Shown here piece after piece: positions 3,001 to 46,692 of a DNA stretch of 64,000 bases. The stretch covers positions 162,428,312 to 162,492,311 of the forward strand of contig CM097886.1 in assembly GCA_044892525.1 (NCBI GenBank), written 5' to 3'. The notes beneath the pieces are model-generated. The model made no database searches. It was not told the DNA's origin and saw only the letters and a list, made by a program, of their open reading frames with translations. Every line of letters starts with the position of its first letter. Within the stretch, counting starts at the first letter, position 1. Position numbers and translations under genes: made by a program. Origin of the DNA: Schmidtea polychroa (taxonomy: Eukaryota).

Positions 3001-4555
3001 CTCGTCTTGGTATAAAAGAACCCACTCTTCAAGAAAGTCTTGACTGGCTCAATGGTAAAGACATCAAATCACAGCACTCTGGTAAGAAAACGCGATTCCA
3101 GAGAGCCAGAAGTGCAGTTGCATTTTTCGAAAAAACCCATAACATCAACATATCATTCATTGTCACAAACCATGAGACATCGCTCTATATAACAACCGCA
3201 ACGCGTGGCACATGCATCTTGACTTCTGATCTTCGTCAAACAACTTCTAAGGTCTTGCACATGGCACTTTGTGACTCTTACCTTAGAAAATGGGAGAACG
3301 GTTGCACTTCCAACATCATTGCTTCAGCAATCAAACTTTCACCTCTAATAAATAAAGCAATTTTTCACGGTGATCTGTCTGAATTTGCTTGGAACTTCAT
3401 TCATCGTGCTCGCACAAACACTCTTTCAATCAATGCGAAGCCTTACAATAAAGGTGAAGAAAGACTTTGTCGTCGATGTCACATTGAAGATGAGACAATG
3501 TCACACATCCTTCAGAATTGTAAGGTCCATCTAACTCTTAGTTCTGAGAGGCATGACAATTGTCTTAAACTAATTGCAAATCGTCTGAAAATCAAAGCTC
3601 ATCTTATTGTCGTAGTAGATAACATGTGTTCACTTGTTCCAAACTCGAGGGAACGAGTGGACTTAATGATCACTAACTTGTCCAAAAAAACAATCTTTTT
3701 AGTTGATTTGAAATGTCCGAGCGACTCTGTCACTAACTTTGAACAAGTTGACAAACGTAATTTGAGGAAATATGATTCTTTAAAGAATGCAATACAGGCT
3801 GTCAAACCTGACTTTAAAGTCGAACTTGACACTTGCATTATTGGAGCTTTAGGATCTTTTCCTTTGAAAACTTCTGAAATACTCTCTAAAGTAGGTATTA
3901 AGGATAAAGAGCTAAAATGTCTATTAAAGGAATGTGCGATAAGTAATATCACACATTCTGCCAGGCGGTGGTATTACCACAAGAACGGCACTTTAAAAGA
4001 CATTGAAAAAGATCAGCTCTCAGATTTTGTAAATAATTCACTAAAGCCTGCAAGCAATAGCATCGTCAACTATTGATGTATATATGTATTTTTTGTTATA
4101 TATATATTTAGTATTTTAGATGTTCCTCGCCCTTAAGCGGACTTTAAAATATAATTATTTGTATAAATGTATTTGTTAGATAGCTAACAGGCTTTTGTAC
4201 TTTGCAAAAGTTTATTTTAGATGCTGCAGATTGGATATTAGGTTTCTGATGATTGTCGTTAATATCGTTAGTCTAATCTCAAAAGAAAACTGATGATGAT
4301 ATGATCATAAATCAATAATCAAAATGCAATGCCAGAAATCAAGTCTGATGACAACAAAAAATCAGAGCCAAGGACGATTCGGTGAATTTACAATAACAAT
4401 TGAGTCGAAATGATTCCAAAAACAAAACATATCTGTGAAACATCCTCTTTCTGACTCTTATGTTGTTGTATCTCTTCCGAATGGCATGTTCCATGTAGAA
4501 CATTGTCCAAATGTATATGAAAGTCAAATTTATTATAATTAATAAACGTTATTAA
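1..4555 (+). mobile_element. tRNA-Leu-inserted RLE-type (R2/NeSL-like) non-LTR retrotransposon, copy 1 (5' part outside window)
   Basis: Near-identical to 8869-13423. Carries intact RT-CCHC-RLE coding sequence and a ~480-nt 3' UTR that ends ...AATAAACGTTATTAA and joins tRNA-Leu nt 6. Confidence 0.95.
3..4076 (+). CDS. ORF2 polyprotein, copy 1 (5'-partial): pseudo-protease repeats, reverse transcriptase, CCHC knuckle, restriction-like endonuclease
   Basis: Frame is open from base 3. RT motifs PGMDGI, WRPIALL, LDIKDAFGSVPH, GVKQGCPIS, YADD, YLGV; CRRC-x8-H-x4-C knuckle; RVDL...VDLKCP...RKY nuclease motif. Confidence 0.95.
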   Translation, partial: RKEVHQIKLTPQQKDPKTSGGGLPKFMETIKRNGVKKVSNGNLIYLQKQNSCVTFLISEWYKNKSNITVLSPELTSNVIAQNDTFIRENVTFKQFAGIEHVISVIPDDKSWSLYLFSFALGISYIFNFNNRILTERLIVIGENMTDYMNRFFLSQTKINFNSHHNIDHGSITSGDPQIFASVFIELVEKLLFDNQVSRTSISESLNSFKLHQANEICQNLNMINFKISEEIISTYFSNLKLDVKFILLNPTICSAIIDDCTEHINGFLNYECLIQAQVIFAIIAPPKHREILLILDYNTDEFYILNPITLTGSENCLSICKSLRNKINEIKETPGLVLNFGECPHDTRGSGLVSKILICAFIKNYANDLPLVNLNLREIGNIISSLLPIIKESKRCKNSIPTKINKIKESNLNLKQRKIKIELLLRKVMFLNVNQIIDVINEEFPNRSKTTLKPYLGNKKKTHKITKSKLITKFMTNMKSTVNKIFNDIDVSERPTFQNIVLNFLIKSPFQGNWKNIFNFCKRSEKALNLELFTNVEVFDELKKADNTSPGMDGIQYRDLLLLDPEGKLLTFLYNKIISDKILPDSWKTFKTLLTPKPGKEGKYDDVSSWRPIALLSVIYKVFASCLASRLTSWINSNELLHIGQKGGSKHDGCVEHNSILSAALEHSKYSVNKPLAIAWLDIKDAFGSVPHDYMWSLLRFIGVSEEFASIIQMLYSNTSTFYSCGHILTPNISIKQGVKQGCPISMILFALAINPVLEAVSQSDSRPFRIGKSPVKILAYADDIALVAKSVEELQKITDIAVATAAEIGFEYRPEKCGYLQLPNIDIESEISINGIKIRKLQSEDFYQYLGVPVGEETDQNPYDILEKVVSDTRKLADSDLLGWQKLKAYKIFVHSRLIFPFRTREIKTSTLSKPNSNKKLSDNITSQLRSCFRKMLILPKNSEVSYFYNSTENGGANCVDLLDEYHTQTITHIFRLLTSKCDFAKKINTDSLKFVTGPRLGIKEPTLQESLDWLNGKDIKSQHSGKKTRFQRARSAVAFFEKTHNINISFIVTNHETSLYITTATRGTCILTSDLRQTTSKVLHMALCDSYLRKWENGCTSNIIASAIKLSPLINKAIFHGDLSEFAWNFIHRARTNTLSINAKPYNKGEERLCRRCHIEDETMSHILQNCKVHLTLSSERHDNCLKLIANRLKIKAHLIVVVDNMCSLVPNSRERVDLMITNLSKKTIFLVDLKCPSDSVTNFEQVDKRNLRKYDSLKNAIQAVKPDFKVELDTCIIGALGSFPLKTSEILSKVGIKDKELKCLLKECAISNITHSARRWYYHKNGTLKDIEKDQLSDFVNNSLKPASNSIVNY

Positions 4556-4632
4556 GATGGCCGAGTGGTTAAGGCGGTGGACTTAAGATCCACTGGACAA
4601 TGTCCGCGTGGGTTCGAACCCCACTTCTAGCA
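4556..4632 (+). pseudogene. 5'-truncated tRNA-Leu(UAA), nt 6-82, fused to the retroelement 3' end
   Basis: GCTAG is replaced by element-derived ATTAA, which breaks the acceptor stem. A and B boxes are intact. Confidence 0.9.
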
Positions 4633-4770
4633 ATATTTTTACTTTTCACTTTCGACAACAAATAATGTTGCTCTTAAAAATTATTGAAAGTTAAATATCG
4701 TTTCTCCTCATTAATAAAGTGAAGAAGCTTGATTTTGGTTTATTAATTTTTTGAAAGTAAATTTTTCAGA

Positions 4771-4852
4771 GCTAGGATGGCCGAGTGGTTAAGGCGGTGG
4801 ACTTAAGATCCACTGGACAATGTCCGCGTGGGTTCGAACCCCACTTCTAGCA
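4771..4852 (+). tRNA. tRNA-Leu(UAA)
   Basis: 82-nt cloverleaf: acceptor GCTAGGA/TTCTAGC, anticodon stem GTGGA/TCCAC with loop CT-TAA-GA, variable arm GGAC-AAT-GTCC, T arm GTGGG-TTCGAAC-CCCAC, followed by a T5 tract. Confidence 0.97.
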
Positions 4853-4990
4853 ATATTTTTACTTTTCACTTTCGACAACAAATAATGTTGCTCTTAAAAA
4901 TTATTGAAAGTTAAATATCGTTTCTCCTCATTAATAAAGTGAAGAAGCTTGATTTTGGTTTATTAATTTTTTGAAAGTAAATTTTTCAGA

Positions 4991-5072
4991 GCTAGGATGG
5001 CCGAGTGGTTAAGGCGGTGGACTTAAGATCCACTGGACAATGTCCGCGTGGGTTCGAACCCCACTTCTAGCA
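4991..5072 (+). tRNA. tRNA-Leu(UAA)
   Basis: Identical to 4771-4852. Confidence 0.97.
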
Positions 5073-5210
5073 ATATTTTTACTTTTCACTTTCGACAACA
5101 AATAATGTTGCTCTTAAAAATTATTGAAAGTTAAATATCGTTTCTCCTCATTAATAAAGTGAAGAAGCTTGATTTTGGTTTATTAATTTTTTGAAAGTAA
5201 ATTTTTCAGA

Positions 5211-5292
5211 GCTAGGATGGCCGAGTGGTTAAGGCGGTGGACTTAAGATCCACTGGACAATGTCCGCGTGGGTTCGAACCCCACTTCTAGCA
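5211..5292 (+). tRNA. tRNA-Leu(UAA)
   Basis: Identical to 4771-4852. Confidence 0.97.
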
Positions 5293-5430
5293 ATATTTTT
5301 ACTTTTCACTTTCGACAACAAATAATGTTGCTCTTAAAAATTATTGAAAGTTAAATATCGTTTCTCCTCATTAATAAAGTGAAGAAGCTTGATTTTGGTT
5401 TATTAATTTTTTGAAAGTAAATTTTTCAGA

Positions 5431-5512
5431 GCTAGGATGGCCGAGTGGTTAAGGCGGTGGACTTAAGATCCACTGGACAATGTCCGCGTGGGTTCGAACC
5501 CCACTTCTAGCA
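5431..5512 (+). tRNA. tRNA-Leu(UAA); intact gene flanking the 5' end of copy 2
   Basis: Identical to 4771-4852. The element starts 34 bp after its 3' end. Confidence 0.97.
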
Positions 5513-5515
5513 ATA

Positions 5516-5520
5516 TTTTT
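5516..5520 (+). terminator. Pol III T5 terminator (example; present in every array unit)
   Basis: TTTTT begins 4 nt after the discriminator base and is followed by further T4 tracts. Confidence 0.75.
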
Positions 5521-5607
5521 ACTTTTCACTTTCGACAACAAATAATATTTGATTTTCTGCTACTCTTAAATAATAAGTAGCCTGTTTATTTGTATCTGTA
5601 TTTTGCA

Positions 5608-5856
5608 ATGGATTGTAATAATTTGAAAATCAATTCTTTTTATTCTAAAAAAACTGGATTTATTTCTCGTTCTGACTTAGTGATGGAAGGATTCAATAAA
5701 CTCAACGGTAAGGATATCAATGAAACTGGATTTGGTTCCTGCTCTCACTCAATGGAGGATGATTTCAATAAACTAAACCGTAAGGTTAATTTATCTATTA
5801 AATATATAAATAATTGTTTTATGGAACAAGTTGACGGTGCAATTGCTTGCACATAA
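5608..5856 (+). CDS. ORF0a, 82-aa leader ORF starting at the element's first AUG
   Basis: ATG...TAA is conserved in copies 2-4 and contains an internal ~24-aa repeat (TGF..ME.FNKLN.K.N). Function unknown. Confidence 0.45.
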   Translation: MDCNNLKINSFYSKKTGFISRSDLVMEGFNKLNGKDINETGFGSCSHSMEDDFNKLNRKVNLSIKYINNCFMEQVDGAIACT

Positions 5857-6434
5857 CTTTTTAATAATTATATAAATAATGTTTATGATAATGTTTTTGA
5901 AGTCGAGGTCTCCAGAAAGTATGTTGACCGAAACTCTTCACCTTCTTATTCTTCAAGCATTAGAAAGGATTTTATAAATAGAAGCAATAGTTTTTGCGAA
6001 ACTGATAAGAAAGTTGCTTCTGTGGAGTTTTCAACTAACAAAATTGACTTTTCTAGAGTCGTTACAATCGACAACAAATGAATATTAAATAAAAATCTTT
6101 TAATAAATAAAAATGAAAATTTCGATAAAAATAATGTATTTATAAAAAATACATCTTTAAAAAATGATTCCTTCCCCAGTGCATTGTCTTCCGAGCTTGA
6201 AAGTCCTAATTTAAAAATTACAATTAAAAATAATTTAATTAAAAAATTTAATTTACCTAGTTTTGAAAATGATAATTTACAGACCCATAAATTAGCTAAC
6301 TTAAACAAAGGTAATTTTGATAATTATAATTTTAAAAATCAGAATTATAAAATTTCATCAAAAGATATTTCAAAAGAAAATATTAAAAATAAAAAATTCC
6401 AAACTTCCCAGAAAACCAGTAAAGCTGTTAATAA

Positions 6435-8288
6435 TTTAAATTTTGTGAAAAAAATCAGAAAACAAAATTAACTTTTAAAGCGGATAATATAAAGTTTGAC
6501 AAGTCAACCCGAACATTGAATTCAAAAGAAAAACAAGAATTCTTTAGATGTTTCCCTCAATTTATAAAATTAATAAAATCAAAAGAAACTATTAATAAGC
6601 ATCATAACATTAATAGTGAACTCTTGAAAATTACCCAGGCTGCAAACCCTCTAAAAATAATTGGATTTTCAAAATTCTTTTATAGGAATCACAACATCTG
6701 TATTTCTTTGAATTCTTTGAAAAATAACACTGTCCATAAAGTAAATCGTTTACTGAATGGACACACTAAAACACTCCTAATTGAATCCAAGGTTGTAAAA
6801 TTTTACAACACAAAGAATAAGTTTGTTTCCGCATCCCCAACCATCAGATGGTTCTTATATGCTCTTTCTCAGAAATTAGCAGGGACCGCGTCCATTTCAA
6901 ATACTAAGTACAGGGGCGTACAAATAAATAACATATTAAATGAAATCAAGCAACGAGGTGAACTTTCTGATTATCTAATAAAATCAAAAATAAAATTTTC
7001 TAATGGGGACTTTGTTTTGCTCGATATACTAAATAACTGTGAAGCTGATGATACCGATATTACCTTAAAATCCTCAGCTCTTTCAAGATCAGAATTAAAA
7101 GATCTTTACCAGAAATTCCCCGACATTCAGGAGCTTTGTTTTACAGAAAACATAGAGAAAAATCCTGAATTACTAAATAATTTAATTCATGACCTAAAAT
7201 CAAATGAAAACTTTCCCAAAGAGATCTCATTTGTGGGGGGTAAACTAATCAAAACGTGTAAAATACCAATTTCTGATGTCTCAAATGCTGAGAGTGAATC
7301 GGATATTATGTTCAATCTTGGCTTATTGAACCTCTACAACACAGCTGAGAGTGACAAAACATTAAGGTCTCTTTTCTGTCAGCCAAAATCGTCTGAAAAA
7401 TTGGTTGACATTATATTTTACCTAAACTATTTACAGTTAAAAGGTGACTTAAAATACATAACAAATGGAACATATGGCGACTATGTCCACAACTACGTTC
7501 GTAATTCCTTGTTGATGTGCTCTGTTATTAACATAGATGATTATGAAACTCTCTTACGGGAAAATATTGAAAGTTGGGCGCCCAACATGGTTGATATGAT
7601 ACCATCATCATCATACTATAGCTCTAGCTGCCTTGAAAGACTTTTAAAACTTCGACAGTGGAAACTGTCAGGAGAGATTGATAGAATTCACAACATAATC
7701 TCTCCTGAAACCATCAATAAAGTCAATTCATTTCTTGACAAAATCGACGAACTCTGTCCACAAAAGGCTATCCAATTAAAGGCTCTTGAGAAATTAAGCA
7801 GTGGAATTAATAAAATGGAATGGGACACAAAGGAAGAAGAGATGATTAAGGCTAGAAGATTTCTCTTCTTCATCCTTAGAGACAAAAAGAAATTTTTATT
7901 TACCAGTAAATCTTCCTACCGTATACCTCAGCACTGTAGGAAGATATGCACAGCCAATATGACTTGCATTATCACAGGTATGCTTGATGTTCTGCTGACA
8001 TGGTTGATTGAAAATAACGATGAACAGAAGACGGACACATCTGAAACAAACATCTCGGAAACTGTCAATGACTCCGCAGAAGCAGATGCGAAGGAGACAT
8101 CTCGGTCCATAGAGATATACGACACTTTGGAGTCTAAACTAAAGGAACATACAACTCTGAAACGACAGCTGCCGGTTGATTTGGATATAATTCCATCTAC
8201 ACCCACAATTTCCAGTTGTGATCAACAGGAGGACCTACTAACAAAATCAAGTAGGAAAACGAGGAAAGTAGTCTCCAAAATAAAATGA
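6435..8288 (+). CDS. ORF1, orphan protein (617 open codons; first Met only at 7308)
   Basis: Long open frame in AT-rich DNA, also intact in copy 3. No domain recognised and the start is uncertain. Confidence 0.8.
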   Translation, partial: FKFCEKNQKTKLTFKADNIKFDKSTRTLNSKEKQEFFRCFPQFIKLIKSKETINKHHNINSELLKITQAANPLKIIGFSKFFYRNHNICISLNSLKNNTVHKVNRLLNGHTKTLLIESKVVKFYNTKNKFVSASPTIRWFLYALSQKLAGTASISNTKYRGVQINNILNEIKQRGELSDYLIKSKIKFSNGDFVLLDILNNCEADDTDITLKSSALSRSELKDLYQKFPDIQELCFTENIEKNPELLNNLIHDLKSNENFPKEISFVGGKLIKTCKIPISDVSNAESESDIMFNLGLLNLYNTAESDKTLRSLFCQPKSSEKLVDIIFYLNYLQLKGDLKYITNGTYGDYVHNYVRNSLLMCSVINIDDYETLLRENIESWAPNMVDMIPSSSYYSSSCLERLLKLRQWKLSGEIDRIHNIISPETINKVNSFLDKIDELCPQKAIQLKALEKLSSGINKMEWDTKEEEMIKARRFLFFILRDKKKFLFTSKSSYRIPQHCRKICTANMTCIITGMLDVLLTWLIENNDEQKTDTSETNISETVNDSAEADAKETSRSIEIYDTLESKLKEHTTLKRQLPVDLDIIPSTPTISSCDQQEDLLTKSSRKTRKVVSKIK

Positions 8289-11200
8289 AGGTGCGTGCCT
8301 GCATCAGTCCCAACATCTGCCCCAATCTCGAAGGAGACTGATGCAGACAGCACAATAAATATTATTAAACATGATAAAAATTTGATAATAAAACGCGACC
8401 CAAAGATCTGGTTTACTGATGATGATATTGATAGTTTTCTCGAAAATCACATCATCAACCCAAAATTTGCGTCTATTAAATGTTTTATTGTTGAGATTTT
8501 GTGCTCTAACCTTGAGAATGACATTTTCCCAATTCCGGAAAGAGTCTTGAAAGCACAAATAATATTATGCCCCCTTAACATCAACAAATCTCACTGGATC
8601 TTGTTCGTATATTGTAAGTCTTCTCTCATTTCTTACTTCATCGATCCAATCCTTCTCAATCGGCATAGTTTTACAAATAAAACAATAGCCCTTAAAATCA
8701 CAATGGCTCTGAATGAATTATTTGACCTTAAAGCAGCCATGACTTTTCATCCACATGATAACTTTTCGTACCAAAATAATAGTTACGATTGTGGGCCATA
8801 CATCTGCGCATATGCCATGATGATTTGTGGAGAATGGCAGAGCTTGTCGGGCAGCTTCATCGAAACCATCAGGAAAGAGGTCCACCAATTTAAACTTACT
8901 CCCCAACAGAAAGATCCCAAAACATCGGGGGGTGGCCTTCCAAAATTCATGGAGACAATCAAACGGAATGGAGTTAAGAAAGTGAGTAATGGTAACCTGA
9001 TATATCTCCAGAAACAAAACTCATGTGTCACATTCCTGATTAGTGAATGGTATAAAAATAAGAGCAACATTACTGTTCTTTCTCCTGAACTGACATCGAA
9101 TGTTATTGCACAAAACGATACATTCATTAGAGAAAATGTCACGTTTAAACAATTTGCTGGAATAGAACATGTCATCAGTGTCATTCCAGACGACAAGAGT
9201 TGGAGTCTTTATCTTTTCTCTTTTGCTTTAGGAATCAGTTACATTTTCAACTTTAACAACCGAATTCTAACTGAGAGACTAATCGGTATAGGAGAAAACA
9301 TGTCAGACTATATGAATAGATTTTTCCTTTCTCAAACGAAAATTAACTTCAATAGTCACCACAACATCGATCACGGTTCCATAACATCTGGCGACCCACA
9401 GATATTTGCTTCTGTTTTCATTGAATTAGTCGAGAAACTACTTTTTGACAATCAGGTTTCTCGCACAAGTATCAGTGAGTCCCTAAATTCTTTTAAACTT
9501 CACCAAGCAAATGAGATCTGCCAGAATTTAAATATGATTAATTTTAAAATTAGCGAAGAAATTATTTCAACTTATTTCAGTAATTTAAAATTAGATGTAA
9601 AATTTATATTGCTGATTCCGACGATTTGTTCTGCAATCATTGATGATTGCACCGAACACATTAATGGGTTTTTAAATTATGAATGTCTCATTCAAGCACA
9701 GGTAATTTTTGCCATTATTGCACCCCCAAAACATCGGGAAATTCTTTTAATTCTCGATTATAACACTGATGAGTTTTATATTCTTAATCCTATTACGCTG
9801 ACTGGAAGTGAAAACTGTCTATCTATTTGCAAGAGTCTTAGAAACAAAATTAATGAAATTAAAGAAACACCTGGCCTTGTATTGAATTTTGGTGAATGTC
9901 CGCATGACACCCGCGGATCTGGCCTTGTAAGTAAAATTCTTATTTGCGCTTTCATTAAAAACTATGCGAACGACTTGCCCCTTGTAAATTTAAACCTGCG
10001 TGAGATAGGTAACATCATCAGTTCGCTACTTCCGATTATCAAAGAGTCAAAAAGATGTAAAAATTCAATCCCTACTAAAATCAATAAAAGCAAAGAAAGT
10101 AACTTAAACTTGAAACAGCGCAAAATCAAGATTGAGTTACTTCTCAGAAAAGTAATGTTTCTTAATGTAAATCAAATCATTGATGTTATCAATGAAGAGT
10201 TCCCAAATCGTTCAAAAACTACACTCAAACCGTATTTGGGTAATAAGAAAAAAACTCATAAAATCACTAAAAGCAAATTAATTACAAAATTCATGACTAA
10301 CATGAAATCAACAGTTAACAAAATATTCAATGACATAGATGTCAGTGAACGACCAACTTTTCAGAATATTGTTTTAAATTTCCTTATAAAATCTCCTTTT
10401 CAAGGAAATTGGAAAAACATTTTCAACTTCTGCAAACGTTCAGAGAAAGCACTAAATCTGGAACTCTTCACAAATGTTGAAGTATTTGATGAACTGAAGA
10501 AAGCTGACAACACAAGTCCTGGTATGGATGGAATACAATATCGTGACTTATTGCTTCTTGATCCTGAGGGTAAACTGCTAACGTTTTTATATAATAAAAT
10601 TATTTCCGACAAAATCATACCAGACAGTTGGAAGACTTTTAAAACCCTTCTTACTCCTAAGCCTGGCAAAGAAGGCAAATATGACGACGTCTCATCTTGG
10701 CGCCCAATTGCTCTACTGTCTGTCATTTATAAGGTTTTTGCTTCTTGTCTAGCAAGTCGTCTGACGAGTTGGATAAACTCGAATGAACTGTTACACATTG
10801 GTCAGAAAGGTGGCTCAAAACATGATGGATGTGTTGAGCACAACTCGATTCTTTCTGCTGCATTAGAACATTCTAAGTATAGCGTAAACAAACCTCTTGC
10901 AATTGCCTGGCTCGACATAAAAGATGCTTTCGGCAGTGTTCCACATGATTATATGTGGTCCTTACTACGATTCATTGGAGTAAGTGAAGAATTTGCATCC
11001 ATCATCCAGATGCTATATTCCAACACAAGCACTTTCTATAGTTGTGGTCACATTCTAACTCCAAATATTTCGATAAAGCAAGGTGTCAAGCAAGGATGCC
11101 CTATTTCCATGATTTTGTTTGCTTTGGCCATCAACCCAGTACTTGAAGCGGTATCTCAATCTGATTCGAGACCCTTCAGGATAGGAAAATCTCCTGTTAA

Positions 11201-12944
11201 GATACTTGCTTATGCAGATGACATTGCTCTTGTTGCAAAATCTGTTGAAGAACTACAAAAAATAACCGATATCGCTGTTGCAACTGCAGCTGAAATTGGT
11301 TTCGAATACCGACCTGAAAAATGTGGATACCTTCAACTGCCAAATATTGACATAGAAAGTGAAATTTCAATAAATGGCATCAAAATTAGAAAGTTGCAAT
11401 CTGAAGATTTCTATCAATATCTTGGAGTACCTGTAGGTGAAGAGACTGACCAAAATCCATATGACATCCTTGAAAAAGTGGTCTCTGACACGAGAAAGCT
11501 TGCTGATTCTGACTTACTTGGCTGGCAAAAACTAAAAGCCTATAAGATTTTTGTTCATTCACGATTGATCTTTCCCTTTAGAACTAGAGAGATTAAGACT
11601 AGTACTCTTTCGAAACCTAATAGCAACAAGAAACTTTCTGATAACATAACCAGTCAACTGAGAAGTTGCTTTAGAAAAATGCTGATTTTGCCAAAAAACT
11701 CCGAAGTAAGCTATTTCTATAACTCCACTGAAAATGGAGGGGCAAACTGTGTGGATCTTCTTGACGAATATCACACTCAGACAATAACACACATTTTCCG
11801 ATTGCTAACATCAAAGTGTGACTTTGCTAAAAAGATCAACACTGATTCATTGAAATTTGTCACTGGTCCTCGTCTTGGTATAAAAGAACCCACTCTTCAA
11901 GAAAGTCTTGACTGGCTCAATGGTAAAGACATCAAATCACAGCACTCTGGTAAGAAAACGCGATTCCAGAGAGCCAGAAGTGCAATTGCATTTTTCGAAA
12001 AAACCCATAACATCAACATATCATTCATTGTCACAAACCATGAGACATCGCTCTATATAACAACCGCAACGCGTGGCACATGCATCTTGACTTCTGATCT
12101 TCGTCAAACAACTTCTAAGGTCTTGCACATGGCACTTTGTGACTCTTACCTTAGAAAATGGGAGAACGGTTGCACTTCCAACATCATTGCTTCAGCAATC
12201 AAACTTTCACCTCTAATAAATAAAGCAATTTTTCACGGTGATCTGTCTGAATTTGCTTGGAACTTCATTCATCGTGCTCGCACAAACACTCTTTCAATCA
12301 ATGCGAAGCCTTACAATAAAGGTGAAGAAAGACTTTGTCGTCGATGTCACATTGAAGATGAGACAATGTCACACATCCTTCAGAATTGTAAGGTCCATCT
12401 AACTCTTAGTTCTGAGAGGCATGACAATTGTCTTAAACTAATTGCAAATCGTCTGAAAATCAAAGCTCATCTTATTGTCGTAGTAGATAACATGTGTTCA
12501 CTTGTTCCAAACTCGAGGGAACGAGTGGACTTAATGATCACTAACTTGTCCAAAAAAACAATCTTTTTAGTTGATTTGAAATGTCCGAGCGACTCTGTCA
12601 CTAACTTTGAACAAGTTGACAAACGTAATTTGAGGAAATATGATTCTTTAAAGAATGCAATACAGGCTGTCAAACCTGACTTTAAAGTCGAACTTGACAC
12701 TTGCATTATTGGAGCTTTAGGATCTTTTCCTTTGAAAACTTCTGAAATACTCTCTAAAGTAGGTATTAAGGATAAAGAGCTAAAATGTCTATTAAAGGAA
12801 TGTGCGATAAGTAATATCACACATTCTGCCAGGCGGTGGTATTACCACAAGAACGGCACTTTAAAAGACATTGAAAAAGATCAGCTCTCAGATTTTGTAA
12901 ATAATTCACTAAAGCCTGCAAGCAATAGCATCGTCAACTATTGA
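8289..12944 (+). CDS. ORF2 polyprotein: Ulp1/C48-like protease, two degenerate repeats, RT, CCHC knuckle, RLE
   Basis: 1,551 open codons directly after the ORF1 TGA, in the same frame. Protease residues H100/D117/Q160/C166 (numbered from GTG 8295), plus RT YADD, CCHC and RLE motifs. Confidence 0.95.
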   Translation, partial: RCVPASVPTSAPISKETDADSTINIIKHDKNLIIKRDPKIWFTDDDIDSFLENHIINPKFASIKCFIVEILCSNLENDIFPIPERVLKAQIILCPLNINKSHWILFVYCKSSLISYFIDPILLNRHSFTNKTIALKITMALNELFDLKAAMTFHPHDNFSYQNNSYDCGPYICAYAMMICGEWQSLSGSFIETIRKEVHQFKLTPQQKDPKTSGGGLPKFMETIKRNGVKKVSNGNLIYLQKQNSCVTFLISEWYKNKSNITVLSPELTSNVIAQNDTFIRENVTFKQFAGIEHVISVIPDDKSWSLYLFSFALGISYIFNFNNRILTERLIGIGENMSDYMNRFFLSQTKINFNSHHNIDHGSITSGDPQIFASVFIELVEKLLFDNQVSRTSISESLNSFKLHQANEICQNLNMINFKISEEIISTYFSNLKLDVKFILLIPTICSAIIDDCTEHINGFLNYECLIQAQVIFAIIAPPKHREILLILDYNTDEFYILNPITLTGSENCLSICKSLRNKINEIKETPGLVLNFGECPHDTRGSGLVSKILICAFIKNYANDLPLVNLNLREIGNIISSLLPIIKESKRCKNSIPTKINKSKESNLNLKQRKIKIELLLRKVMFLNVNQIIDVINEEFPNRSKTTLKPYLGNKKKTHKITKSKLITKFMTNMKSTVNKIFNDIDVSERPTFQNIVLNFLIKSPFQGNWKNIFNFCKRSEKALNLELFTNVEVFDELKKADNTSPGMDGIQYRDLLLLDPEGKLLTFLYNKIISDKIIPDSWKTFKTLLTPKPGKEGKYDDVSSWRPIALLSVIYKVFASCLASRLTSWINSNELLHIGQKGGSKHDGCVEHNSILSAALEHSKYSVNKPLAIAWLDIKDAFGSVPHDYMWSLLRFIGVSEEFASIIQMLYSNTSTFYSCGHILTPNISIKQGVKQGCPISMILFALAINPVLEAVSQSDSRPFRIGKSPVKILAYADDIALVAKSVEELQKITDIAVATAAEIGFEYRPEKCGYLQLPNIDIESEISINGIKIRKLQSEDFYQYLGVPVGEETDQNPYDILEKVVSDTRKLADSDLLGWQKLKAYKIFVHSRLIFPFRTREIKTSTLSKPNSNKKLSDNITSQLRSCFRKMLILPKNSEVSYFYNSTENGGANCVDLLDEYHTQTITHIFRLLTSKCDFAKKINTDSLKFVTGPRLGIKEPTLQESLDWLNGKDIKSQHSGKKTRFQRARSAIAFFEKTHNINISFIVTNHETSLYITTATRGTCILTSDLRQTTSKVLHMALCDSYLRKWENGCTSNIIASAIKLSPLINKAIFHGDLSEFAWNFIHRARTNTLSINAKPYNKGEERLCRRCHIEDETMSHILQNCKVHLTLSSERHDNCLKLIANRLKIKAHLIVVVDNMCSLVPNSRERVDLMITNLSKKTIFLVDLKCPSDSVTNFEQVDKRNLRKYDSLKNAIQAVKPDFKVELDTCIIGALGSFPLKTSEILSKVGIKDKELKCLLKECAISNITHSARRWYYHKNGTLKDIEKDQLSDFVNNSLKPASNSIVNY

Positions 12945-13423
12945 TGTATATATGTATTTTTTGTTATATATATATTTAGTATTTTAGATGTTCCTCGCCC
13001 TTAAGCGGACTTTAAAATATAATTATTTGTATAAATGTATTTGTTAGATAGCTAACAGGCTTTTGTACTTTGCAAAAGTTTATTTTAGATGCTGCAGATT
13101 GGATATTAGGTTTCTGATGATTGTCGTTAATATCGTTAGTCTAATCTCAAAAGAAAACTGATGATGATATGATCATAAATCAATAATCAAAATGCAATGC
13201 CAGAAATCAAGTCTGATGACAACAAAAAATCAGAGCCAAGGACGATTCGGTGAATTTACAATAACAATTGAGTCGAAATGATTCCAAAAACAAAACATAT
13301 CTGTGAAACATCCTCTTTCTGACTCTTATGTTGTTGTATCTCTTCCGAATGGCATGTTCCATGTAGAACATTGTCCAAATGTATATGAAAGTCAAATTTA
13401 TTATAATTAATAAACGTTATTAA

Positions 13424-13500
13424 GATGGCCGAGTGGTTAAGGCGGTGGACTTAAGATCCACTGGACAATGTCCGCGTGGGTTCGAACCCCACTTCTAGCA
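13424..13500 (+). pseudogene. 5'-truncated tRNA-Leu(UAA), nt 6-82
   Basis: Same junction as at 4556. Confidence 0.9.
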
Positions 13501-13638
13501 ATATTTTTACTTTTCACTTTCGACAACAAATAATGTTGCTCTTAAAAATTATTGAAAGTTAAATATCGTTTCTCCTCATTAATAAAGTGAAGAAGCTTGA
13601 TTTTGGTTTATTAATTTTTTGAAAGTAAATTTTTCAGA

Positions 13639-15119: not shown

Positions 15120-16936
15120 CTTTTAAAGCGGATAATATAAAGTTTGACAAGTCAACCCGAACATTGAATTCAAAAGAAAAACAAGAATTCTTTAGATGTT
15201 TCCCTCAATTTATAAAATTAATAAAATCAAAAGAAACTATTAATAAGCATCATAACATTAATAGTGAACTCTTGAAAATTACCCAGGCTGCAAACCCTCT
15301 AAAAATAATTGGATTTTCAAAATTCTTTTATAGGAATCACAACATCTGTATTTCTTTGAATTCTTTGAAAAATAACACTGTCCATAAAGTAAATCGTTTA
15401 CTGAATGGACACACTAAAACACTCCTAATTGAATCCAAGGTTGTAAAATTTTACAACACAAAGAATAAGTTTGTTTCCGCATCCCCAACCATCAGACGGT
15501 TCTTATATGCTCTTTCTCAGAAATTAGCAGGGACCGCGTCCATTTCAAATACTAAGTACAGGGGCGTACAAATAAATAACATATTAAATGAAATCAAGCA
15601 ACGAGGTGAACTATCTGATTATCTAATAAAATCAAAAATAAAATTTTCTAATGGGGACTTTGTTTTGCTCGATATACTAAATAACTGTGAAGCTGATGAT
15701 ACCGATATTACCTTAAAATCCTCAGCTCTTTCAAGATCAGAATTAAAAGATCTTTACCAGAAATTCCCCGACATTCAGGAGCTTTGTTTTACAGAAAACA
15801 TAGAGAAAAATCCTGAATTACTAAATAATTTAATTCATGACCTAAAATCAAATGAAAACTTTCCCAAAGAGATCTCATTTGTGGGGGGTAAACTAATCAA
15901 AACGTGTAAAATACCAATTTCTGATGTCTCAAATGCTGAGAGTGAATCGGATATTATGTTCAATCTTGGCTTATTGAACCTCTACAACACAGCTGAGAGT
16001 GACAAAACATTAAGGTCTCTTTTCTGTCAGCCAAAATCGTCTGAAAAATTGGTTGACATTATATTTTACCTAAACTATTTACAGTTAAAAGGTGACTTAA
16101 AATACATAACAAATGGAACATATGGCGACTATGTCCACAACTACGTTCGTAATTCCTTGTTGATGTGCTCTGTTATTAACATAGATGATTATGAAACTCT
16201 CTTACGGGAAAATATTGAAAGTTGGGCGCCCAACATGGTTGATATGATACCATCATCATCATACTATAGCTCTAGCTGCCTTGAAAGACTTTTAAAACTT
16301 CGACAGTGGAAACTGTCAGGAGAGATTGATAGAATTCACAACATAATCTCTCCTGAAACCATCAATAAAGTCAATTCATTTCTTGACAAAATCGACGAAC
16401 TCTGTCCACAAAAGGCTATCCAATTAAAGGCTCTTGAGAAATTAAGCAGTGGAATTAATAAAATGGAATGGGACACAAAGGAAGAAGAGATGATTAAGGC
16501 TAGAAGATTTCTCTTCTTCATCCTTAGAGACAAAAAGAAATTTTTATTTACCAGTAAATCTTCCTACCGTATACCTCAGCACTGTAGGAAGATATGCACA
16601 GCCAATATGACTTGCATTATCACAGGTATGCTTGATGTTCTGCTGACATGGTTGATTGAAAATAACGATGAACAGAAGACGGACACATCTGAAACAAACA
16701 TCTCGGAAACTGTCAATGACTCCGCAGAAGCAGATGCGAAGGAGACATCTCGGTCCATAGAGATATACGACACTTTGGAGTCTAAACTAAAGGAACATAC
16801 AACTCTGAAACGACAGCTGCCGGTTGATTTGGATATAATTCCATCTACACCCACAATTTCCAGTTGTGATCAACAGGAGGACCTACTAACAAAATCAAGT
16901 AGGAAAACGAGGAAAGTAGTCTCCAAAATAAAATGA
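15083..16936 (+). CDS. ORF1, copy 3
   Basis: Near-identical to 6435-8288 (e.g. W>R in TIRxFLY). Confidence 0.8.
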   Translation, partial: FKFCEKNQKTKLTFKADNIKFDKSTRTLNSKEKQEFFRCFPQFIKLIKSKETINKHHNINSELLKITQAANPLKIIGFSKFFYRNHNICISLNSLKNNTVHKVNRLLNGHTKTLLIESKVVKFYNTKNKFVSASPTIRRFLYALSQKLAGTASISNTKYRGVQINNILNEIKQRGELSDYLIKSKIKFSNGDFVLLDILNNCEADDTDITLKSSALSRSELKDLYQKFPDIQELCFTENIEKNPELLNNLIHDLKSNENFPKEISFVGGKLIKTCKIPISDVSNAESESDIMFNLGLLNLYNTAESDKTLRSLFCQPKSSEKLVDIIFYLNYLQLKGDLKYITNGTYGDYVHNYVRNSLLMCSVINIDDYETLLRENIESWAPNMVDMIPSSSYYSSSCLERLLKLRQWKLSGEIDRIHNIISPETINKVNSFLDKIDELCPQKAIQLKALEKLSSGINKMEWDTKEEEMIKARRFLFFILRDKKKFLFTSKSSYRIPQHCRKICTANMTCIITGMLDVLLTWLIENNDEQKTDTSETNISETVNDSAEADAKETSRSIEIYDTLESKLKEHTTLKRQLPVDLDIIPSTPTISSCDQQEDLLTKSSRKTRKVVSKIK

Positions 16937-19900
16937 AGGTGCGTGCCTGCATCAGTCCCAACATCTGCCCCAATCTCGAAGGAGACTGATGCAGACAGCA
17001 CAATAAATATTATTAAACATGATAAAAATTTGATAATAAAACGCGACCCAAAGATCTGGTTTACTGATGATGATATTGATAGTTTTCTCGAAAATCACAT
17101 CATCAACCCAAAATTTGCGTCTATTAAATGTTTTATTGTTGAGATTTTGTGCTCTAACCTTGAGAATGACATTTTCCCAATTCCGGAAAGAGTCTTGAAA
17201 GCACAAATAATATTATGCCCCCTTAACATCAACAAATCTCACTGGATCTTGTTCGTATATTGTAAGTCTTCTCTCATTTCTTACTTCATCGATCCAATCC
17301 TTCTCAATCGGCATAGTTTTACAAATAAAACAATAGCCCTTAAAATCACAATGGCTCTGAATGAATTATTTGACCTTAAAGCAGCCATGACTTTTCATCC
17401 ACATGATAACTTTTCGTACCAAAATAATAGTTACGATTGTGGGCCATACATCTGCGCATATGCCATGATGATTTGTGGAGAATGGCAGAGCTTGTCGGGC
17501 AGCTTCATCGAAACCATCAGGAAAGAGGTCCACCAATTTAAACTTACTCCCCAACAGAAAGATCCCAAAACATCGGGGGGTGGCCTTCCAAAATTCATGG
17601 AGACAATCAAACGGAATGGAGTTAAGAAAGTGAGTAATGGTAACCTGATATATCTCCAGAAACAAAACTCATGTGTCACATTCCTGATTAGTGAATGGTA
17701 TAAAAATAAGAGCAACATTACTGTTCTTTCTCCTGAACTGACATCGAATGTTATTGCACAAAACGATACATTCATTAGAGAAAATGTCACGTTTAAACAA
17801 TTTGCTGGAATAGAACATGTCATCAGTGTCATTCCAGACGACAAGAGTTGGAGTCTTTATCTTTTCTCTTTTGCTTTAGGAATCAGTTACATTTTCAACT
17901 TTAACAACCGAATTCTAACTGAGAGACTAATCGGTATAGGAGAAAACATGTCAGACTATATGAATAGATTTTTCCTTTCTCAAACGAAAATTAACTTCAA
18001 TAGTCACCACAACATCGATCACGGTTCCATAACATCTGGCGACCCACAGATATTTGCTTCTGTTTTCATTGAATTAGTCGAGAAACTACTTTTTGACAAT
18101 CAGGTTTCTCGCACAAGTATCAGTGAGTCCCTAAATTCTTTTAAACTTCACCAAGCAAATGAGATCTGCCAGAATTTAAATATGATTAATTTTAAAATTA
18201 GCGAAGAAATTATTTCAACTTATTTCAGTAATTTAAAATTAGATGTAAAATTTATATTGCTGATTCCGACGATTTGTTCTGCAATCATTGATGACTGCAC
18301 CGAACACATTAATGGGTTTTTAAATTATGAATGTCTCATTCAAGCACAGGTAATTTTTGCCATTATTGCACCCCCAAAACATCGGGAAATTCTTTTAATT
18401 CTCGATTATAACACTGATGAGTTTTATATTCTTAATCCTATTACGCTGACTGGAAGTGAAAACTGTCTATCTATTTGCAAGAGTCTTAGAAACAAAATTA
18501 ATGAAATTAAAGAAACACCTGGCCTTGTATTGAATTTTGGTGAATGTCCGCATGACACCCGCGGATCTGGCCTTGTAAGTAAAATTCTTATTTGCGCTTT
18601 CATTAAAAACTATGCGAACGACTTGCCCCTTGTAAATTTAAACCTGCGTGAGATAGGTAACATCATCAGTTCGCTACTTCCGATTATCAAAGAGTCAAAA
18701 AGATGTAAAAATTCAATCCCTACTAAAATATATAAAATCAAAGAAAGTAACTTAAACTTGAAACAGCGCAAAATCAAGATTGAGTTACTTCTCAGAAAAG
18801 TAATGTTTCTTAATGTAAATCAAATCATTGATGTTATCAATGAAGAGTTCCCAAATCGTTCAAAAACTACACTCAAACCGTATTTGGGTAATAAGAAAAA
18901 AACTCATAAAATCACTAAAAGCAAATTAATTACAAAATTCATGACTAACATGAAATCAACAGTTAACAAAATATTCAATGACATAGATGTCAGTGAACGA
19001 CCAACTTTTCAGAATATTGTTTTAAATTTCCTTATAAAATCTCCTTTTCAAGGAAATTGGAAAAACATTTTCAACTTCTGCAAACGTTCAGAGTAAGCAC
19101 TAAATCTGGAACTCTTCACAAATGTTGAAGTATTTGATGAACTGAAGAAAGCTGACAACACAAGTCCTGGTATGGATGGAATACAATATCGTGACTTATT
19201 GCTTCTTGATCCTGAGGGTAAACTGCTAACGTTTTTATATAATAAAATTATTTCCGACAAAATCATACCAGACAGTTGGAAGACTTTTAAAACCCTTCTT
19301 ACTCCTAAGCCTGGCAAAGAAGGCAAATATGACGACGTCTCATCTTGGCGCCCAATTGCTCTACTGTCTGTCATTTATAAGGTTTTTGCTTCTTGTCTAG
19401 CAAGTCGTCTGACGAGTTGGATAAACTCGAATGAACTGTTACACATTGGTCAGAAAGGTGGCTCAAAACATGATGGATGTGTTGAGCACAACTCGATTCT
19501 TTCTGCTGCATTAGAACATTCTAAGTATAGCGTAAACAAACCTCTTGCAATTGCCTGGCTCGACATAAAAGATGCTTTCGGCAGTGTTCCACATGATTAT
19601 ATGAGGTCCTTACTGCGATTCATTGGAGTGAGTGAAGAATTTGCATCCATCATCCAGATGCTATATTCCAACACAAGCACTTTCTATAGTTGTGGTCACA
19701 TTCTAACTCCAAATATTTCGATAAAGCAAGGTGTCAAGCAAGGATGCCCTATTTCCATGATTTTGTTTGCTTTGGCCATCAACCCAGTACTTGAAGCGGT
19801 ATCTCAATCTGATTCGAGACCCTTCAGGATAGGAAAATCTCCTGTTAAGATACTTGCTTATGCAGATGACATTGCTCTTGTTGCAAAATCTGTTGAAGAA

Positions 19901-22182: not shown

Positions 22183-25100
22183 ATTTGATTTTCTGCTACT
22201 CTTAAATAATAAGTAGCCTGTTTATTTGTATCTGTATTTTGCAATGGATTGTAATAATTTGAAAATCAATTCTTTTTATTCTAAAAAAACTGGATTTATT
22301 TCTCGTTCCGACTCAGTGATGGAAGGATTCAATAAACTCAACGGTAAGGATATCAATGAAACTGGATTTGGTTCCTGCTCTCACTCAATGGAGGATGATT
22401 TCAATAAACTAAACCGTAAGGTTAATTTAATTATTAAATATATAAATAATTGTTTTATGGAACAAGTTGACGGTGCAATTGCTTGCACATAACTTTTTAA
22501 TAATTATATAAATAATGTTTATGATAATGTTTTTGAAGTCGAGGTCTCCAGAAAGTATGTTGACCGAAACTCTTCACCTTCTTATTCTTCAAGCATTAGA
22601 AAGGATTTTATAAATAGAAGCAATAGTTTTTGCGAAACTGATAAGAAAGTTGCTTCTGTGGAGTTTTCAACTAACAAAATTGACTTTTCTAGAGTCGTTA
22701 CAATCGACAACAAATGCATATTAAATAAAAATCTTTTAATAAATATAAATGAAAATTTCGATAAAAATAATGTATTTATAAAAAATCCATCTTTAAAAAA
22801 TGATTCCTTCCCCAGTGCATTGTCTTCCGAGCTTGAAAGTCCTAATTTAAAAATTACAATTAAAAATAATTTAATTAAAAAATTTAATTTACCTAGTTTT
22901 GAAAATGATAATTTACAGACCCATAAATTAGTTAACTTAAACAAAGGTAATTTTGATAATTATAATTTTAAAAATCAGAATTATAAAATTTCATCAAAAG
23001 ATATTTCAAAAGAAAATTTTTAAAAATAAAAAATTCCAAACTTCCCAGAAAACCAGTAAAGCTGTTAATAATTTAAATTTTGTGAAAAAAAATCAGAAAA
23101 CAAAATTAACTTTTAAAGCGGATAATATAAAGTTTGACAAGTCAACCCGAACATTGAATTCAAAAGAAAAACAAGAATTCTTTAGATGTTTCCCTCAATT
23201 TATAAAATTAATAAAATCAAAAGAAACTATTAATAAGCATCATAACATTAATAGTGAACTCTTGAAAATAACCCAGGCTGCAAACCCTCTAAAAATAATT
23301 GGATTTTCAAAATTCTTTTATAGGAATCACAACATCTGTATTTCTTTGAATTTTTTGAAAAATAACACTGTCCATAAAGTAAATCGTTTACTGAATGGAC
23401 ACACTAAAACACTCCTAATTGAATCCAAGGTTGTAAAATTTTACAACACAAAGAATAAGTTTGTTTCCGCATCCCCAACCATCAGACGGTTCTTATATGC
23501 TCTTTCTCAGAAATTAGCAGGGACCGCGTCCATTTCAAATACTAAGTACAGGGGCGTACAAATAAATAACATATTAAATGAAATCAAGCAACGAGGTGAA
23601 CTTTCTGATTATCTAATAAAATCAAAAATAAAATTTTCTAATGGGGATTTTGTTATGCTCGATATACTAAATAACTGTGAAGCTGATGATAACGATATTA
23701 CCTTAAAATCCTCAGCTCTTTCAAGATCAGAATTAAAAGATCTTTACCAGAAATTCCCCGACATTCAGGAGCTTTGTTTTACAGAAAACATAGAGAAAAA
23801 TCCTGAATTACTAAATAATTTAATTCATGACCTAAAATCAAATGAAAACTTTCCCAAAGAGATCTCATTTGTGGGGGGTAAACTAATCAAAACGTGTAAA
23901 ATACCAATTTCTGATGTCTCAAATGCTGAGAGTGAATCGGATATTATGTTCAATCTTGGCTTATTGAACCTCTACAACACAGCTGAGAATGACAAAACAT
24001 TAAGGTCTCTTTTCTGTCAGCCAAAATCGTCTGAAAAATTGGTTGACGTTATATTTTACCTAAACTATTTACAGTTAAAAGGTGACTTAAAATACATAAC
24101 AAATGGAACATATGGCGACTATGTCCACAACTACGTTCGTAATTCCTTGTTGATGTGCTCTGTTATTAACATGAGGACCTACTAACAAAATCAAGTAGGA
24201 AAACGAGGAAAGTAGTCTCCAAAATAAAATGAAGGTGCGTGCCTGCATCAGTCCCAACATCTGCCCCAATCTCGAAGGAGACTGATGCAGACAGCACAAT
24301 AAATATTATTAAACATGATAAAAATTTGATAATAAAACGCGACCCAAAGATCTGGTTTACTGATGATGATATTGATAGTTTTCTCGAAAATCACATCATC
24401 AACCCAAAATTTGCGTCTATTAAATGTTTTATTGTTGAGATTTTGTGCTCTAACCTTGAGAATGACATTTTCCCAATTCCGGAAAGAGTCTTGAAAGCAC
24501 AAATAATATTATGCCCCCTTAACATCAACAAATCTCACTGGATCTTGTTCGTATATTGTAAGTCTTCTCTCATTTCTTACTTCATCGATCCAATCCTTCT
24601 CAATCGGCATAGTTTTACAAATAAAACAATAGCCCTTAAAATCACAATGGCTCTGAATGAATTATTTGACCTTAAAGCAGCCATGACTTTTCATCCACAT
24701 GATAACTTTTCGTACCAAAATAATAGTTACGATTGTGGGCCATACATCTGCGCATATGCCATGATGATTTGTGGAGAATGGCAGAGCTTGTCGGGCAGCT
24801 TCATTGAGACCATCAGGAAAGAGGTCCACCAATTTAAACTTACTCCACAACAGAAAGATCCCAAAACATCGGGGGGTGGCCTTCCAAAATTCATGGAGAC
24901 AATCAAACGGAATGGAGTTAAGAAAGTGAGTAATGGTAACCTGATATATCTCCAGAAACAAAACTCATGTGTCACATTCCTGATTAGTGAATGGTATAAA
25001 AATAAGAGCAACATTACTGTTCTTTCTCCTGAACTGACATCGAATGTTATTGCACAAAACGATACATTCATTAGAGAAAATGTCACGTTTAAACAATTTG

Positions 25101-45800: not shown

Positions 45801-46007
45801 TTTTTGTTTTTTAAGAAAACTGTATTATCCGTTAATCTCGTGCAACGAAAATCGACTTGGAGACAAATTGGGTATACTAATTGTCAATTATTATTGTATC
45901 ACACTATCATAGCTTGTCTCCTAAAATAATAATAACAAATACTAAAAACAACATTTGCGATTAAAACAAACTTAAGCTTATTTAAAGAAATAAATCGTTA
46001 ATTTTCA

Positions 46008-46603: not shown

Positions 46604-46692
46604 GTAAATTCATTATTTTTTTTTTGATAAACCAATACCAATAAATATGTATTGTTTAGATAAATAAAAATAAATTAATTGAATTATTTTAG

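Follow-up and report, generated by a model that had tools for sequence, protein, structure and literature searches.

The window, a stretch of 64,000 nucleotides of Schmidtea polychroa DNA, contains copies of a restriction-like-endonuclease (RLE) type non-LTR retrotransposon inserted in tRNA genes (Table 1). Copy 2 starts on the 3′ side of a tRNA, some 33 nt beyond it, and its end is fused to the next tRNA-Leu at that gene's 5′ part; compared by eye, this 3′ end looks like that of LIN25_SM in S6 Fig of PMC4640811. LIN25_SM and LIN15_SM are likewise RLE non-LTR elements whose 3′ ends adjoin the 5′ part of tRNA genes (PMC4640811), and two genomic copies (L062, L069) lie in the same intron-bearing tRNA as that shown for LIN25_SM. 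With an intact YADD in the reverse transcriptase (RT), a C-terminal CCHC plus RLE, an Ulp1-like protease upstream of the RT and tRNA insertion with a LIN25-type 3′ end, the element resembles LIN25_SM and, on these sequence features, would be akin to the R5/LIN lineage of the NeSL clade (Ulp1, RT, RLE; tRNA-targeting). Unlike LIN25_SM and LIN15_SM, the family, with at least 580 junctions in the host genome, targets many different tRNA arrays as well as 5S rRNA arrays. The excerpts of PMC4640811 on these two elements mention neither ORF1-ORF2 translation nor an in-frame stop or a stem. Outside relatives were sought in metagenomes, which gave 12 weak, unrelated Ulp1-like loci, and among viruses, which gave no match. 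Motif matches L143-L145, considered as distant families, are chance matches with no element there.

Table 1. Features in and around copy 2 (window coordinates).
Feature	Position	Strand	Basis or remark
Host target: tandem array of tRNA-Leu(TAA) with a 220-bp unit, lying 5′ of copy 2	4550..5512	+	ARAGORN, TRF
Copy 2, RLE-type non-LTR retrotransposon (LIN25-like, NeSL clade), approximate ends	5546..13422	+	self-comparison, boundary analysis
ORF1	5608..8288	+	AUG 5608; open in copy 2 from 6435 to TGA
Conserved in-frame UGA, candidate readthrough codon	8286..8288	+	context AAA-UGA-AGG
ORF2, 1,551 codons, without conserved AUG	8289..12944	+	
5′ arm of predicted stem, includes base-paired GUG	8295..8311	+	
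3′ arm of predicted stem	8334..8353	+	main helix 8334-8346, 3-nt bulge, basal helix 8350-8353
Ulp1-like cysteine protease domain	8406..8885	+	Pfam PF02902, 23 bits vs cut-off 20.7; His102, Asp119, Cys168 of ORF2
Reverse transcriptase, YADD at ORF2 aa 975	10665..11429	+	Pfam PF00078, E 5e-26
CCHC knuckle and restriction-like endonuclease motifs (RHD; D...D-x-K)	12336..12600	+	motif positions, by eye and script
Copy 3, same stop and stem; premature TAA at 19094 in its ORF2	16934..17001	+	self-comparison
Copy 4 (deleted, 3′-truncated), same stop and stem	24230..24297	+	self-comparison

ORF1 of copy 2 is broken: compared with L061, an intact sister in the array, stop codons interrupt it early, at 5854 and 6079, and its frame is shifted by one base near 6451. 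The remaining open frame, 6435-8288, counts 617 aa stop to stop and its first Met is residue 292. In L061, ORF1 is 893 aa long from its Met and an ORF1-ORF2 fusion would reach ~2,445 aa; the polyprotein of ~2,170 aa given in an earlier note on this DNA is wrong because the window copy's own ORF1 is broken upstream. ORF1 displayed no Pfam family above cut-off, a poor model of its core (pLDDT 63, pTM 0.30) had no PDB match, and the structure atlas held nothing at >=0.9. As to a fused ORF1-ORF2 protein, none appeared in protein searches (in the range of 853-2,715 aa, two matches, of 1,524 and 1,537 aa; zero in a second search), which is weak evidence. A 1,888-aa frame at L070 is a chimera lying downstream; L070 does carry the TGA.

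Past the TGA, the frame runs for 1,551 codons, as previously reported. The motifs at its C-terminus we take to be those of an RLE, Pfam zf-RVT matching at only E 0.038; a structure model of ORF2 residues 1-600 was poor (pLDDT 39). The statement that the first ORF2 Met lies downstream of the catalytic His and Asp also holds: in copy 2 it is residue 139 from the stop (137 counted from the GUG), after His102 and Asp119 and before Cys168. Across the nine lineages with both ORFs intact, this Met is found at 37, 39, 51, 51, 56, 81, 139, 152 and 317, and there is no fixed AUG.

The TGA separates the in-frame open frames 6435-8288 and 8289-12944, as had been noted. Its presence in the other window copies had been taken as conservation. 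The same junction is indeed found at 16934 and 24230, but the window copies are 98-99.7% identical, each being otherwise damaged, and their agreement proves nothing; the case for conservation rests on divergent lineages genome-wide. TGA is present in 580/623 motif matches, against 15 and 0 for the controls, in 30/30 loci of one examined set and in 9/9 intact lineages, most pairs of which are 30-45% identical in ORF1 and 53-63% in ORF2. Between deep lineages, the synonymous sites of ORF2 are saturated; dS far exceeds dN in both ORFs, and the stop lies between two coding frames under selection. Only three strict-motif copies lack TGA, none of them carrying TGG, and TGG, TGC or TGT at the stop position was found in 0 copies. 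A sense codon in active relatives, which the earlier note had proposed to look for in divergent family members, is therefore absent from all nine intact lineages. The in-frame TGA is real, family-wide and no shared lesion. UGA identity alone is weak evidence because 15/227 two-fold codons are invariant by background; still, ORF2 itself ends with TAA in 8/9 intact lineages whereas the junction keeps UGA. TGA is the most readthrough-permissive stop and AA immediately upstream is favourable (PMC10085805); here the preceding codon is AAA in 7/9 intact lineages. On the other hand, the +4 base is A in 19/19 junction variants, which bears out the remark that UGA-A is not the classic leaky context, and the type II context UGA-CUA/CGG does not occur. 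In contigs of four sequencing runs, the differences listed include neither a variant at 8286-8288 nor a GT-AG joint spanning it, an observation not used here as evidence.

The junction had been described as followed by only a weak 5-bp hairpin. That reader's range ended inside the 3′ arm, and the strong stem was missed: a bulged stem is predicted at 8295-8353, with a basal helix of 4 bp beginning 6 nt past the stop and a main helix of 9-13 bp beginning 10 nt past it. The fold of 8286-8360 has an energy of -28.0 kcal/mol (z -5.26), none of 200 shuffles being as stable, and the stem window is the most stable of 1,301 72-nt windows in the element (next best -23.6). Synonymous positions are also frozen: in a 6-lineage alignment, no other 9-codon windows have a higher third-position identity than the two arms, and 5/8 invariant residues in the arms have an invariant codon, compared with 19/516 elsewhere. 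Stimulator spacers are 8 nt in MuLV and 6 nt in SEPN1 (PMC3159437) and at least 8 nt in MoMLV, VEEV, SINV and CTFV (PMC13517186). Having a 3′ stem with synonymous-site conservation at 6-12 nt, the predicted geometry matches that of known readthrough stimulators. In this genome the stem is invariant rather than covarying: among the 19 junction variants, 0 of 17 pairs display a compensatory double change, and 92.3% of cells are paired, no better than shuffles. L180 has one G-C to G.U change. For four outside proteins with changed arm residues, back-translation of the protein sequence suggests that each 5′ arm would pair best with its own 3′ arm. An Rfam search of 5400-13520 returned tRNAs only.

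Directly observed are the stop and its phase, its conservation in intact lineages, the synonymous codons frozen in two arms that are complementary to each other, and the fact that no AUG is conserved. Their best reading, which we consider probable, is a structure-stimulated UGA readthrough giving an ORF1-X-ORF2 polyprotein of ~2,445 aa. A minority of ribosomes would read through the UGA; the stem, supposed to form in vivo, would slow termination at the ribosome mRNA entry channel. Readthrough would set a high ORF1p : RT ratio, as at gag-pol junctions, and the Ulp1-like protease might then cut the polyprotein. The preference of the earlier note for a programmed in-frame stop, read through rather than restarted at the GUG, survives the search for a sense codon and for splicing; its stimulator and product length do not stand. 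Against readthrough are the +4 A, the lack of compensatory double changes in the genome and the precedent of Tca2, which has a UGA and a 3′ pseudoknot but whose junction gave no readthrough in yeast (PMC2194720).

Alternatively, ribosomes that terminate at the UGA could resume translation two codons further, at the GUG, or independently of AUG, with the stem holding the 40S subunit as in SART1 and LINE-1, which we regard as rather unlikely. Non-LTR elements are known to translate ORF2 by re-initiation (PMC5972666, PMC10275272). The RNAs of SART1 and LINE-1 are bicistronic like the present one, and in SART1 a structure beyond the ORF1 stop is required. Moreover, the GUG is invariant in 9/9 intact lineages and gene callers start seven outside relatives (P0001, 2, 5, 6, 11, 16, 35) exactly at the codon in GUG position, although their DNA might be AUG there. 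The GUG is however paired in the predicted stem and pairing with the conserved GCAC arm accounts for its invariance; its start context is poor in 19/19 variants, position -3 being a pyrimidine and +4 a C. Start codons used for re-initiation after long ORFs are usually out of frame, and re-initiation gives no reason to prefer UGA to UAA. Both codons of the spacer vary as coding sequence does, the first between Arg and Lys and the second among Cys, His and Tyr, and neither is ever a stop. The constant 6-nt spacer entails the constant phase, which on its own cannot distinguish the two readings. A SART1-type overlapping stop-start whose AUG opens ORF2 does not occur: the AUG of the AUGA overlap is out of frame with ORF2 and, as first described for copy 2, opens an 18-codon dead-end ORF (15-18 codons across variants), and the overlap is missing in 62/580 copies and in intact lineage L180-182. 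Unlike SART1 and LINE-1, the element has neither a conserved UAAUG/AUGA overlap nor an in-frame AUG or a 63-nt spacer, its ORFs abutting in frame.

We give still less credit to ORF2 being translated from a separate RNA, made from an internal promoter or by spliced-leader (SL) trans-splicing adding an AUG, with the stem as an RNA-processing or packaging signal. The flatworm SL reportedly ends in AUG and could supply the start, and an in-frame AG precedes codon 17 in 16/19 junction variants; a junction promoter exists in Tca2 (PMC2194720). Yet this AG belongs to GAG, unlike the UUNYAG acceptor reported for parasitic flatworms, is replaced by GAA in intact lineage L179 and is impossible in 6/8 outside proteins, where the residues are L, I, L, V, L and S; a search of the genome for retrocopies with ATG joined at that site gave 0 matches, and a separate RNA would not account for the constant frame and distance of the stop. 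Neither an AUG nor the AUGA overlap nor a splice acceptor is conserved at the junction, and no conserved splicing route to an AUG, the possible refutation named in the earlier note, was found there. Recoding of the UGA, either to UGG through A-to-I editing or through insertion of selenocysteine, appears very improbable in spite of the resemblance of a UGA with a stem 6 nt downstream to the SEPN1 element (PMC3159437). Edited RNA would be copied into new insertions, which does not agree with the zero count of sense codons, and the stop sits outside the duplex; no Rfam SECIS match was obtained in 5400-13520 at E up to 5, a search that could miss a divergent SECIS, and the UGA position falls in a poorly conserved linker. 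Finally, the near-identity and damage of the window copies would fit an inactivating mutation shared by tandem duplication. We hold this hardly credible: the same stop in nine lineages with saturated synonymous sites, in many tRNA and 5S arrays and between intact ORFs under purifying selection refutes a shared lesion at the ORF1-ORF2 junction, an argument that does not cover the post-protease TGA of the sister family described below.

Structure-stimulated readthrough has close parallels. Alphaviruses, CTFV, furoviruses and SEPN1 (PMC3159437) share an in-frame UGA, before the polymerase, a 3′ stem at 6-10 nt, synonymous-site conservation and upstream adenines; the present junction, a candidate from its sequence, differs by A rather than C at +4, a short 22-nt loop and a non-LTR host element. 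MuLV (UAG, pseudoknot), Tj1/Tosmo (GAA-TGA-CT) and Tca2 (UGA, pseudoknot) similarly have, just before a protease-RT polyprotein, an in-frame stop conserved among relatives. These are retroviral or LTR elements with a gag, and their proteases are aspartic, whereas here ORF1 falls in no Pfam family above cut-off, the protease is an Ulp1-like cysteine protease and the endonuclease an RLE. For ORF2 translation in non-LTR elements, the reviews in their sections on this question give re-initiation (SART1, LINE-1) and StopGo (L1Tc). The conserved UGA plus stem would extend this list to programmed readthrough of the viral kind, which viruses and LTR elements are known to use and which is proposed here for a non-LTR retrotransposon in tRNA arrays; it would explain how an element without ORF2 AUG makes its RT, by a compact 70-nt cassette working against an unfavourable +4 A.

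In a sister family (L220, L221; one near-identical cluster), ORF1 and protease are in a single open frame and a TGA (UGA-C) comes after the protease, with no fold signal after it (z -0.53, +1.18). Tentatively, and with less than even confidence, we suppose that flatworm R5/LIN elements may employ a gag-pol-like strategy, with structure-programmed UGA-A readthrough and a protease-processed ORF1-protease-RT-endonuclease polyprotein, the sister family having moved the readthrough codon to after the protease (UGA-C, no hairpin). No such strategy for LINEs was found reported in the literature searched. Protein P0027, which looks decayed, continues in frame out of a stretch resembling ORF1 and has Val at the site of the GUG; this continuous frame and the fused ORF1 and protease of the sister family point to an ORF1-ORF2 fusion as a natural product.

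The ~8-kb element occurs as four copies in the window, 98-99.7% identical and located within a tRNA-Leu(TAA) array. In copy 2 (5546..13422, + strand), a 617-codon frame runs up to an in-frame TGA (8286-8288) and then continues for 1,551 further codons, and the same junction is present again at 16934 and 24230, as the earlier note had described. Likewise, the first Met of its ORF2 (residue 139 from the stop, 137 from the GUG) lies downstream of the catalytic His and Asp, and the AUGA start at the junction opens only a mini-ORF of 18 codons. The polyprotein of ~2,170 aa proposed previously has to be revised: since ORF1 of copy 2 is broken near its 5′ end compared with the intact array sister L061, the fusion length becomes ~893+1+1,551 = 2,445 aa.

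Features of the element, of its sister family and of the remaining window
Feature	Position	Strand or orientation	Remark
Ulp1-like protease	ORF2 His102, Asp119, Cys168		
RT	ORF2 YADD at 975		
CCHC/RLE (restriction-like endonuclease) motifs	ORF2		
Sister family	L220:1694-8578 (minus strand), L221, L186, L187; G000 C2 142.9 and 144.7 Mb	antisense to tRNA-Lys genes	
DUF4371-like transposase fragment	window 31174-32097	-	below cut-off
Forkhead-domain exon	window 46002-46607	+	

TGA is found in 30/30 loci recovered by the junction search. Using as motif the sequence downstream of the stop, picked without regard to the stop itself, 623 matches were obtained in the genome versus 15 with the reversed control; TGA stands at the same distance in 580 of the 623 and in none of the control. 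With a stricter motif it is missing at only three places (one copy from a decayed family reads CGA, one junction has been swapped for unrelated upstream sequence, and one place has TAA), while TGG, TGC and TGT never occupy the stop position among these matches. Three non-TGA matches of the looser motif were fetched and all are chance, the rest being inspected in part. Both ORFs are intact in 16 of the 41 full loci scored. Nine lineages with both ORFs intact, one locus each (L061, L069, L146, L091, L094, L096, L179, L180, L247), have ORF1 identities of 30-61% and ORF2 identities of 53-81%. Each of the nine carries TGA in the same alignment column, none having a sense codon there, and ORF2 ends with TAA in eight of them. 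In six of the nine, both ORFs have a dN far lower than dS, and the synonymous sites of ORF2 reach saturation when deep lineages are compared. A shared inactivating lesion, as envisaged in the earlier note, is ruled out by the motif matches together with these intact, diverged lineages under purifying selection. An apparent preference for UGA over UAA, taken alone, is only suggestive, because 15/227 two-fold codons are invariant across the nine lineages by background.

What follows the stop is far from the weak 5-bp hairpin first reported. Bases 8286-8360 have a predicted fold of -28.0 kcal/mol (z -5.26; 0/200 shuffles as stable). This is the most stable of the element's 1,301 windows of 72 nt, which average -9.6 and whose runner-up away from this site has -23.6. 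In its conserved form, a basal helix of 4 bp begins 6 nt past the stop and a 3-nt bulge separates it from a main helix of 9-13 bp that begins 10 nt past the stop, and the L179 and L180 junctions fold alike (z -3.9 and -2.4). Both arms lie in coding sequence with synonymous positions frozen: in six lineages a single codon is kept at 7/10 invariant arm residues, other runs of 10 reaching at most 4, and in the nine lineages the codon is invariant at 5/8 invariant arm residues versus 19/516 elsewhere. Among 19 in-genome variants (92.3% of cells paired), no pair is changed on both sides and there is no excess over shuffles; thus, in-genome support for the predicted stem is invariance and not covariation.

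Related proteins from outside the genome start at the codon equivalent to GUG, the third one past the stop, and keep both arm motifs. Known as proteins and not as DNA, and back-translated by picking the best synonymous codons, all eight allow at least 9 of the 10 pairs, 8-10 of them Watson-Crick; random peptide pairs gave 9 Watson-Crick pairs in 0/145 and 8 in 3/145. When four of these proteins with altered arm residues were cross-tested, the own partner arm fitted best, with one tie. Compensatory change in their putative stem is implied. L183 and L184 are 5′-truncated copies that begin inside the 3′ arm, without ORF1 and stop; a stem of this strength might mark a point at which reverse transcription terminates.

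We consider that the UGA is probably read through by the ribosome, which would generate the ORF1-ORF2 fusion; the Ulp1-like protease might then process this putative product. The stem geometry agrees with known stimulators in the available parts of PMC3159437 and PMC13517186, and the signal would work like a structure-stimulated readthrough cassette, not classed as type II since that context is absent (+4 = A). No in-frame AUG is conserved across the nine intact lineages, the first Met ranging from 37 to 317. The main cautions are the A at +4, the Tca2 precedent (no readthrough in yeast from a junction combining UGA and a pseudoknot; PMC2194720, available part), and SART1, in which re-initiation relies on downstream structure (PMC10275272 and PMC5972666, available parts). 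Re-initiation after the UGA, which the SART1 case favours, nevertheless seems unlikely here: the AUGA overlap is lacking from 62/580 copies as well as from the L180-182 lineage, whose ORFs are intact, and the GUG is base-paired in the predicted stem, its context in 19/19 variants being a -3 pyrimidine and a +4 C.

Production of ORF2 from a separate RNA looks more doubtful still. A spliced leader (SL) acceptor near the junction is unlikely, because the sole near-constant in-frame AG is GAG and is absent in L179 and in 6/8 outside proteins, and because no retrocopy with an ATG joined at the candidate site was found in the genome; the splicing that might supply an AUG, raised in the earlier note, has thus no conserved acceptor. 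RNA editing of the stop is also very unlikely, as new insertions would inherit the edit and none of the strict-motif matches displays it.

In a tRNA-Lys array lies a distantly related sister family that shares 27% identity across ORF1 plus the protease region. Its ORF1 and protease form a continuous reading frame of 994 codons, uninterrupted by a stop or hairpin, which shows the predicted ORF1-protease fusion to be a natural product. In L220 and L221, a single in-frame TGA-CTC past the protease precedes an intact 1,299-codon RT/RLE frame; no fold signal was detected at this TGA. It is present in 30/30 copies, and may be a founder lesion since these form one near-identical cluster; a search for diverged members found none.

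That LTR elements can have in-frame stops at their gag-pol junctions is well established (PMC10085805, available part); here the stop lies at the ORF1-ORF2 junction of a non-LTR element. A literature search covering few subscription papers returned no report of readthrough or a stem at such a junction, nor do the available parts of PMC2657916 and PMC5678591 contain any; the two-ORF arrangement may have been mentioned before. The element family itself is already known: its 3′ end and target, compared by eye, match those of LIN25_SM of the R5/LIN lineage, NeSL clade, in the available parts of PMC4640811 and PMC5035012. This resemblance makes a planarian the likely host.

Copy 2 is flanked on both sides (5431-5545 and 13423-13537) by a tRNA body and ~33 nt of spacer. 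This is either a target-site duplication of unusual length (~115 bp), or else the rest of the array unit has been lost. Past the active protease, positions 9180-9800 (ORF2 aa ~300-505) contain two possible degenerate Ulp1-like fold repeats, which here fall short of significance (iE 0.4-0.6); second Ulp1-like domains are significant in the outside proteins P0012, P0020 and P0014. Loci L061-L100, L177-L185 and L247-L249 occupy Leu, Ala, Gln, Met, Val, His, Ser, Phe, Cys, Asp/Gly, Arg, Ile, Asn and Thr tRNA arrays, L180-L184 being antisense to Gly/Gln/Ser tRNAs. ARAGORN calls tRNA-Pro in L062/L069, which looks like an intron-bearing tRNA-Tyr. One lineage resides in an apparent 5S rRNA array, recognised by eye in the L146 and L148 flanks; 5S rRNA is not named as a LIN-element target in the available parts of the LIN literature. 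Finally, ORF1 N-termini differ between the closely related L061, L062, L067, L074 and L078 in different arrays, which suggests 5′ exchange or recombination between lineages, and L062 and L070 look chimeric.
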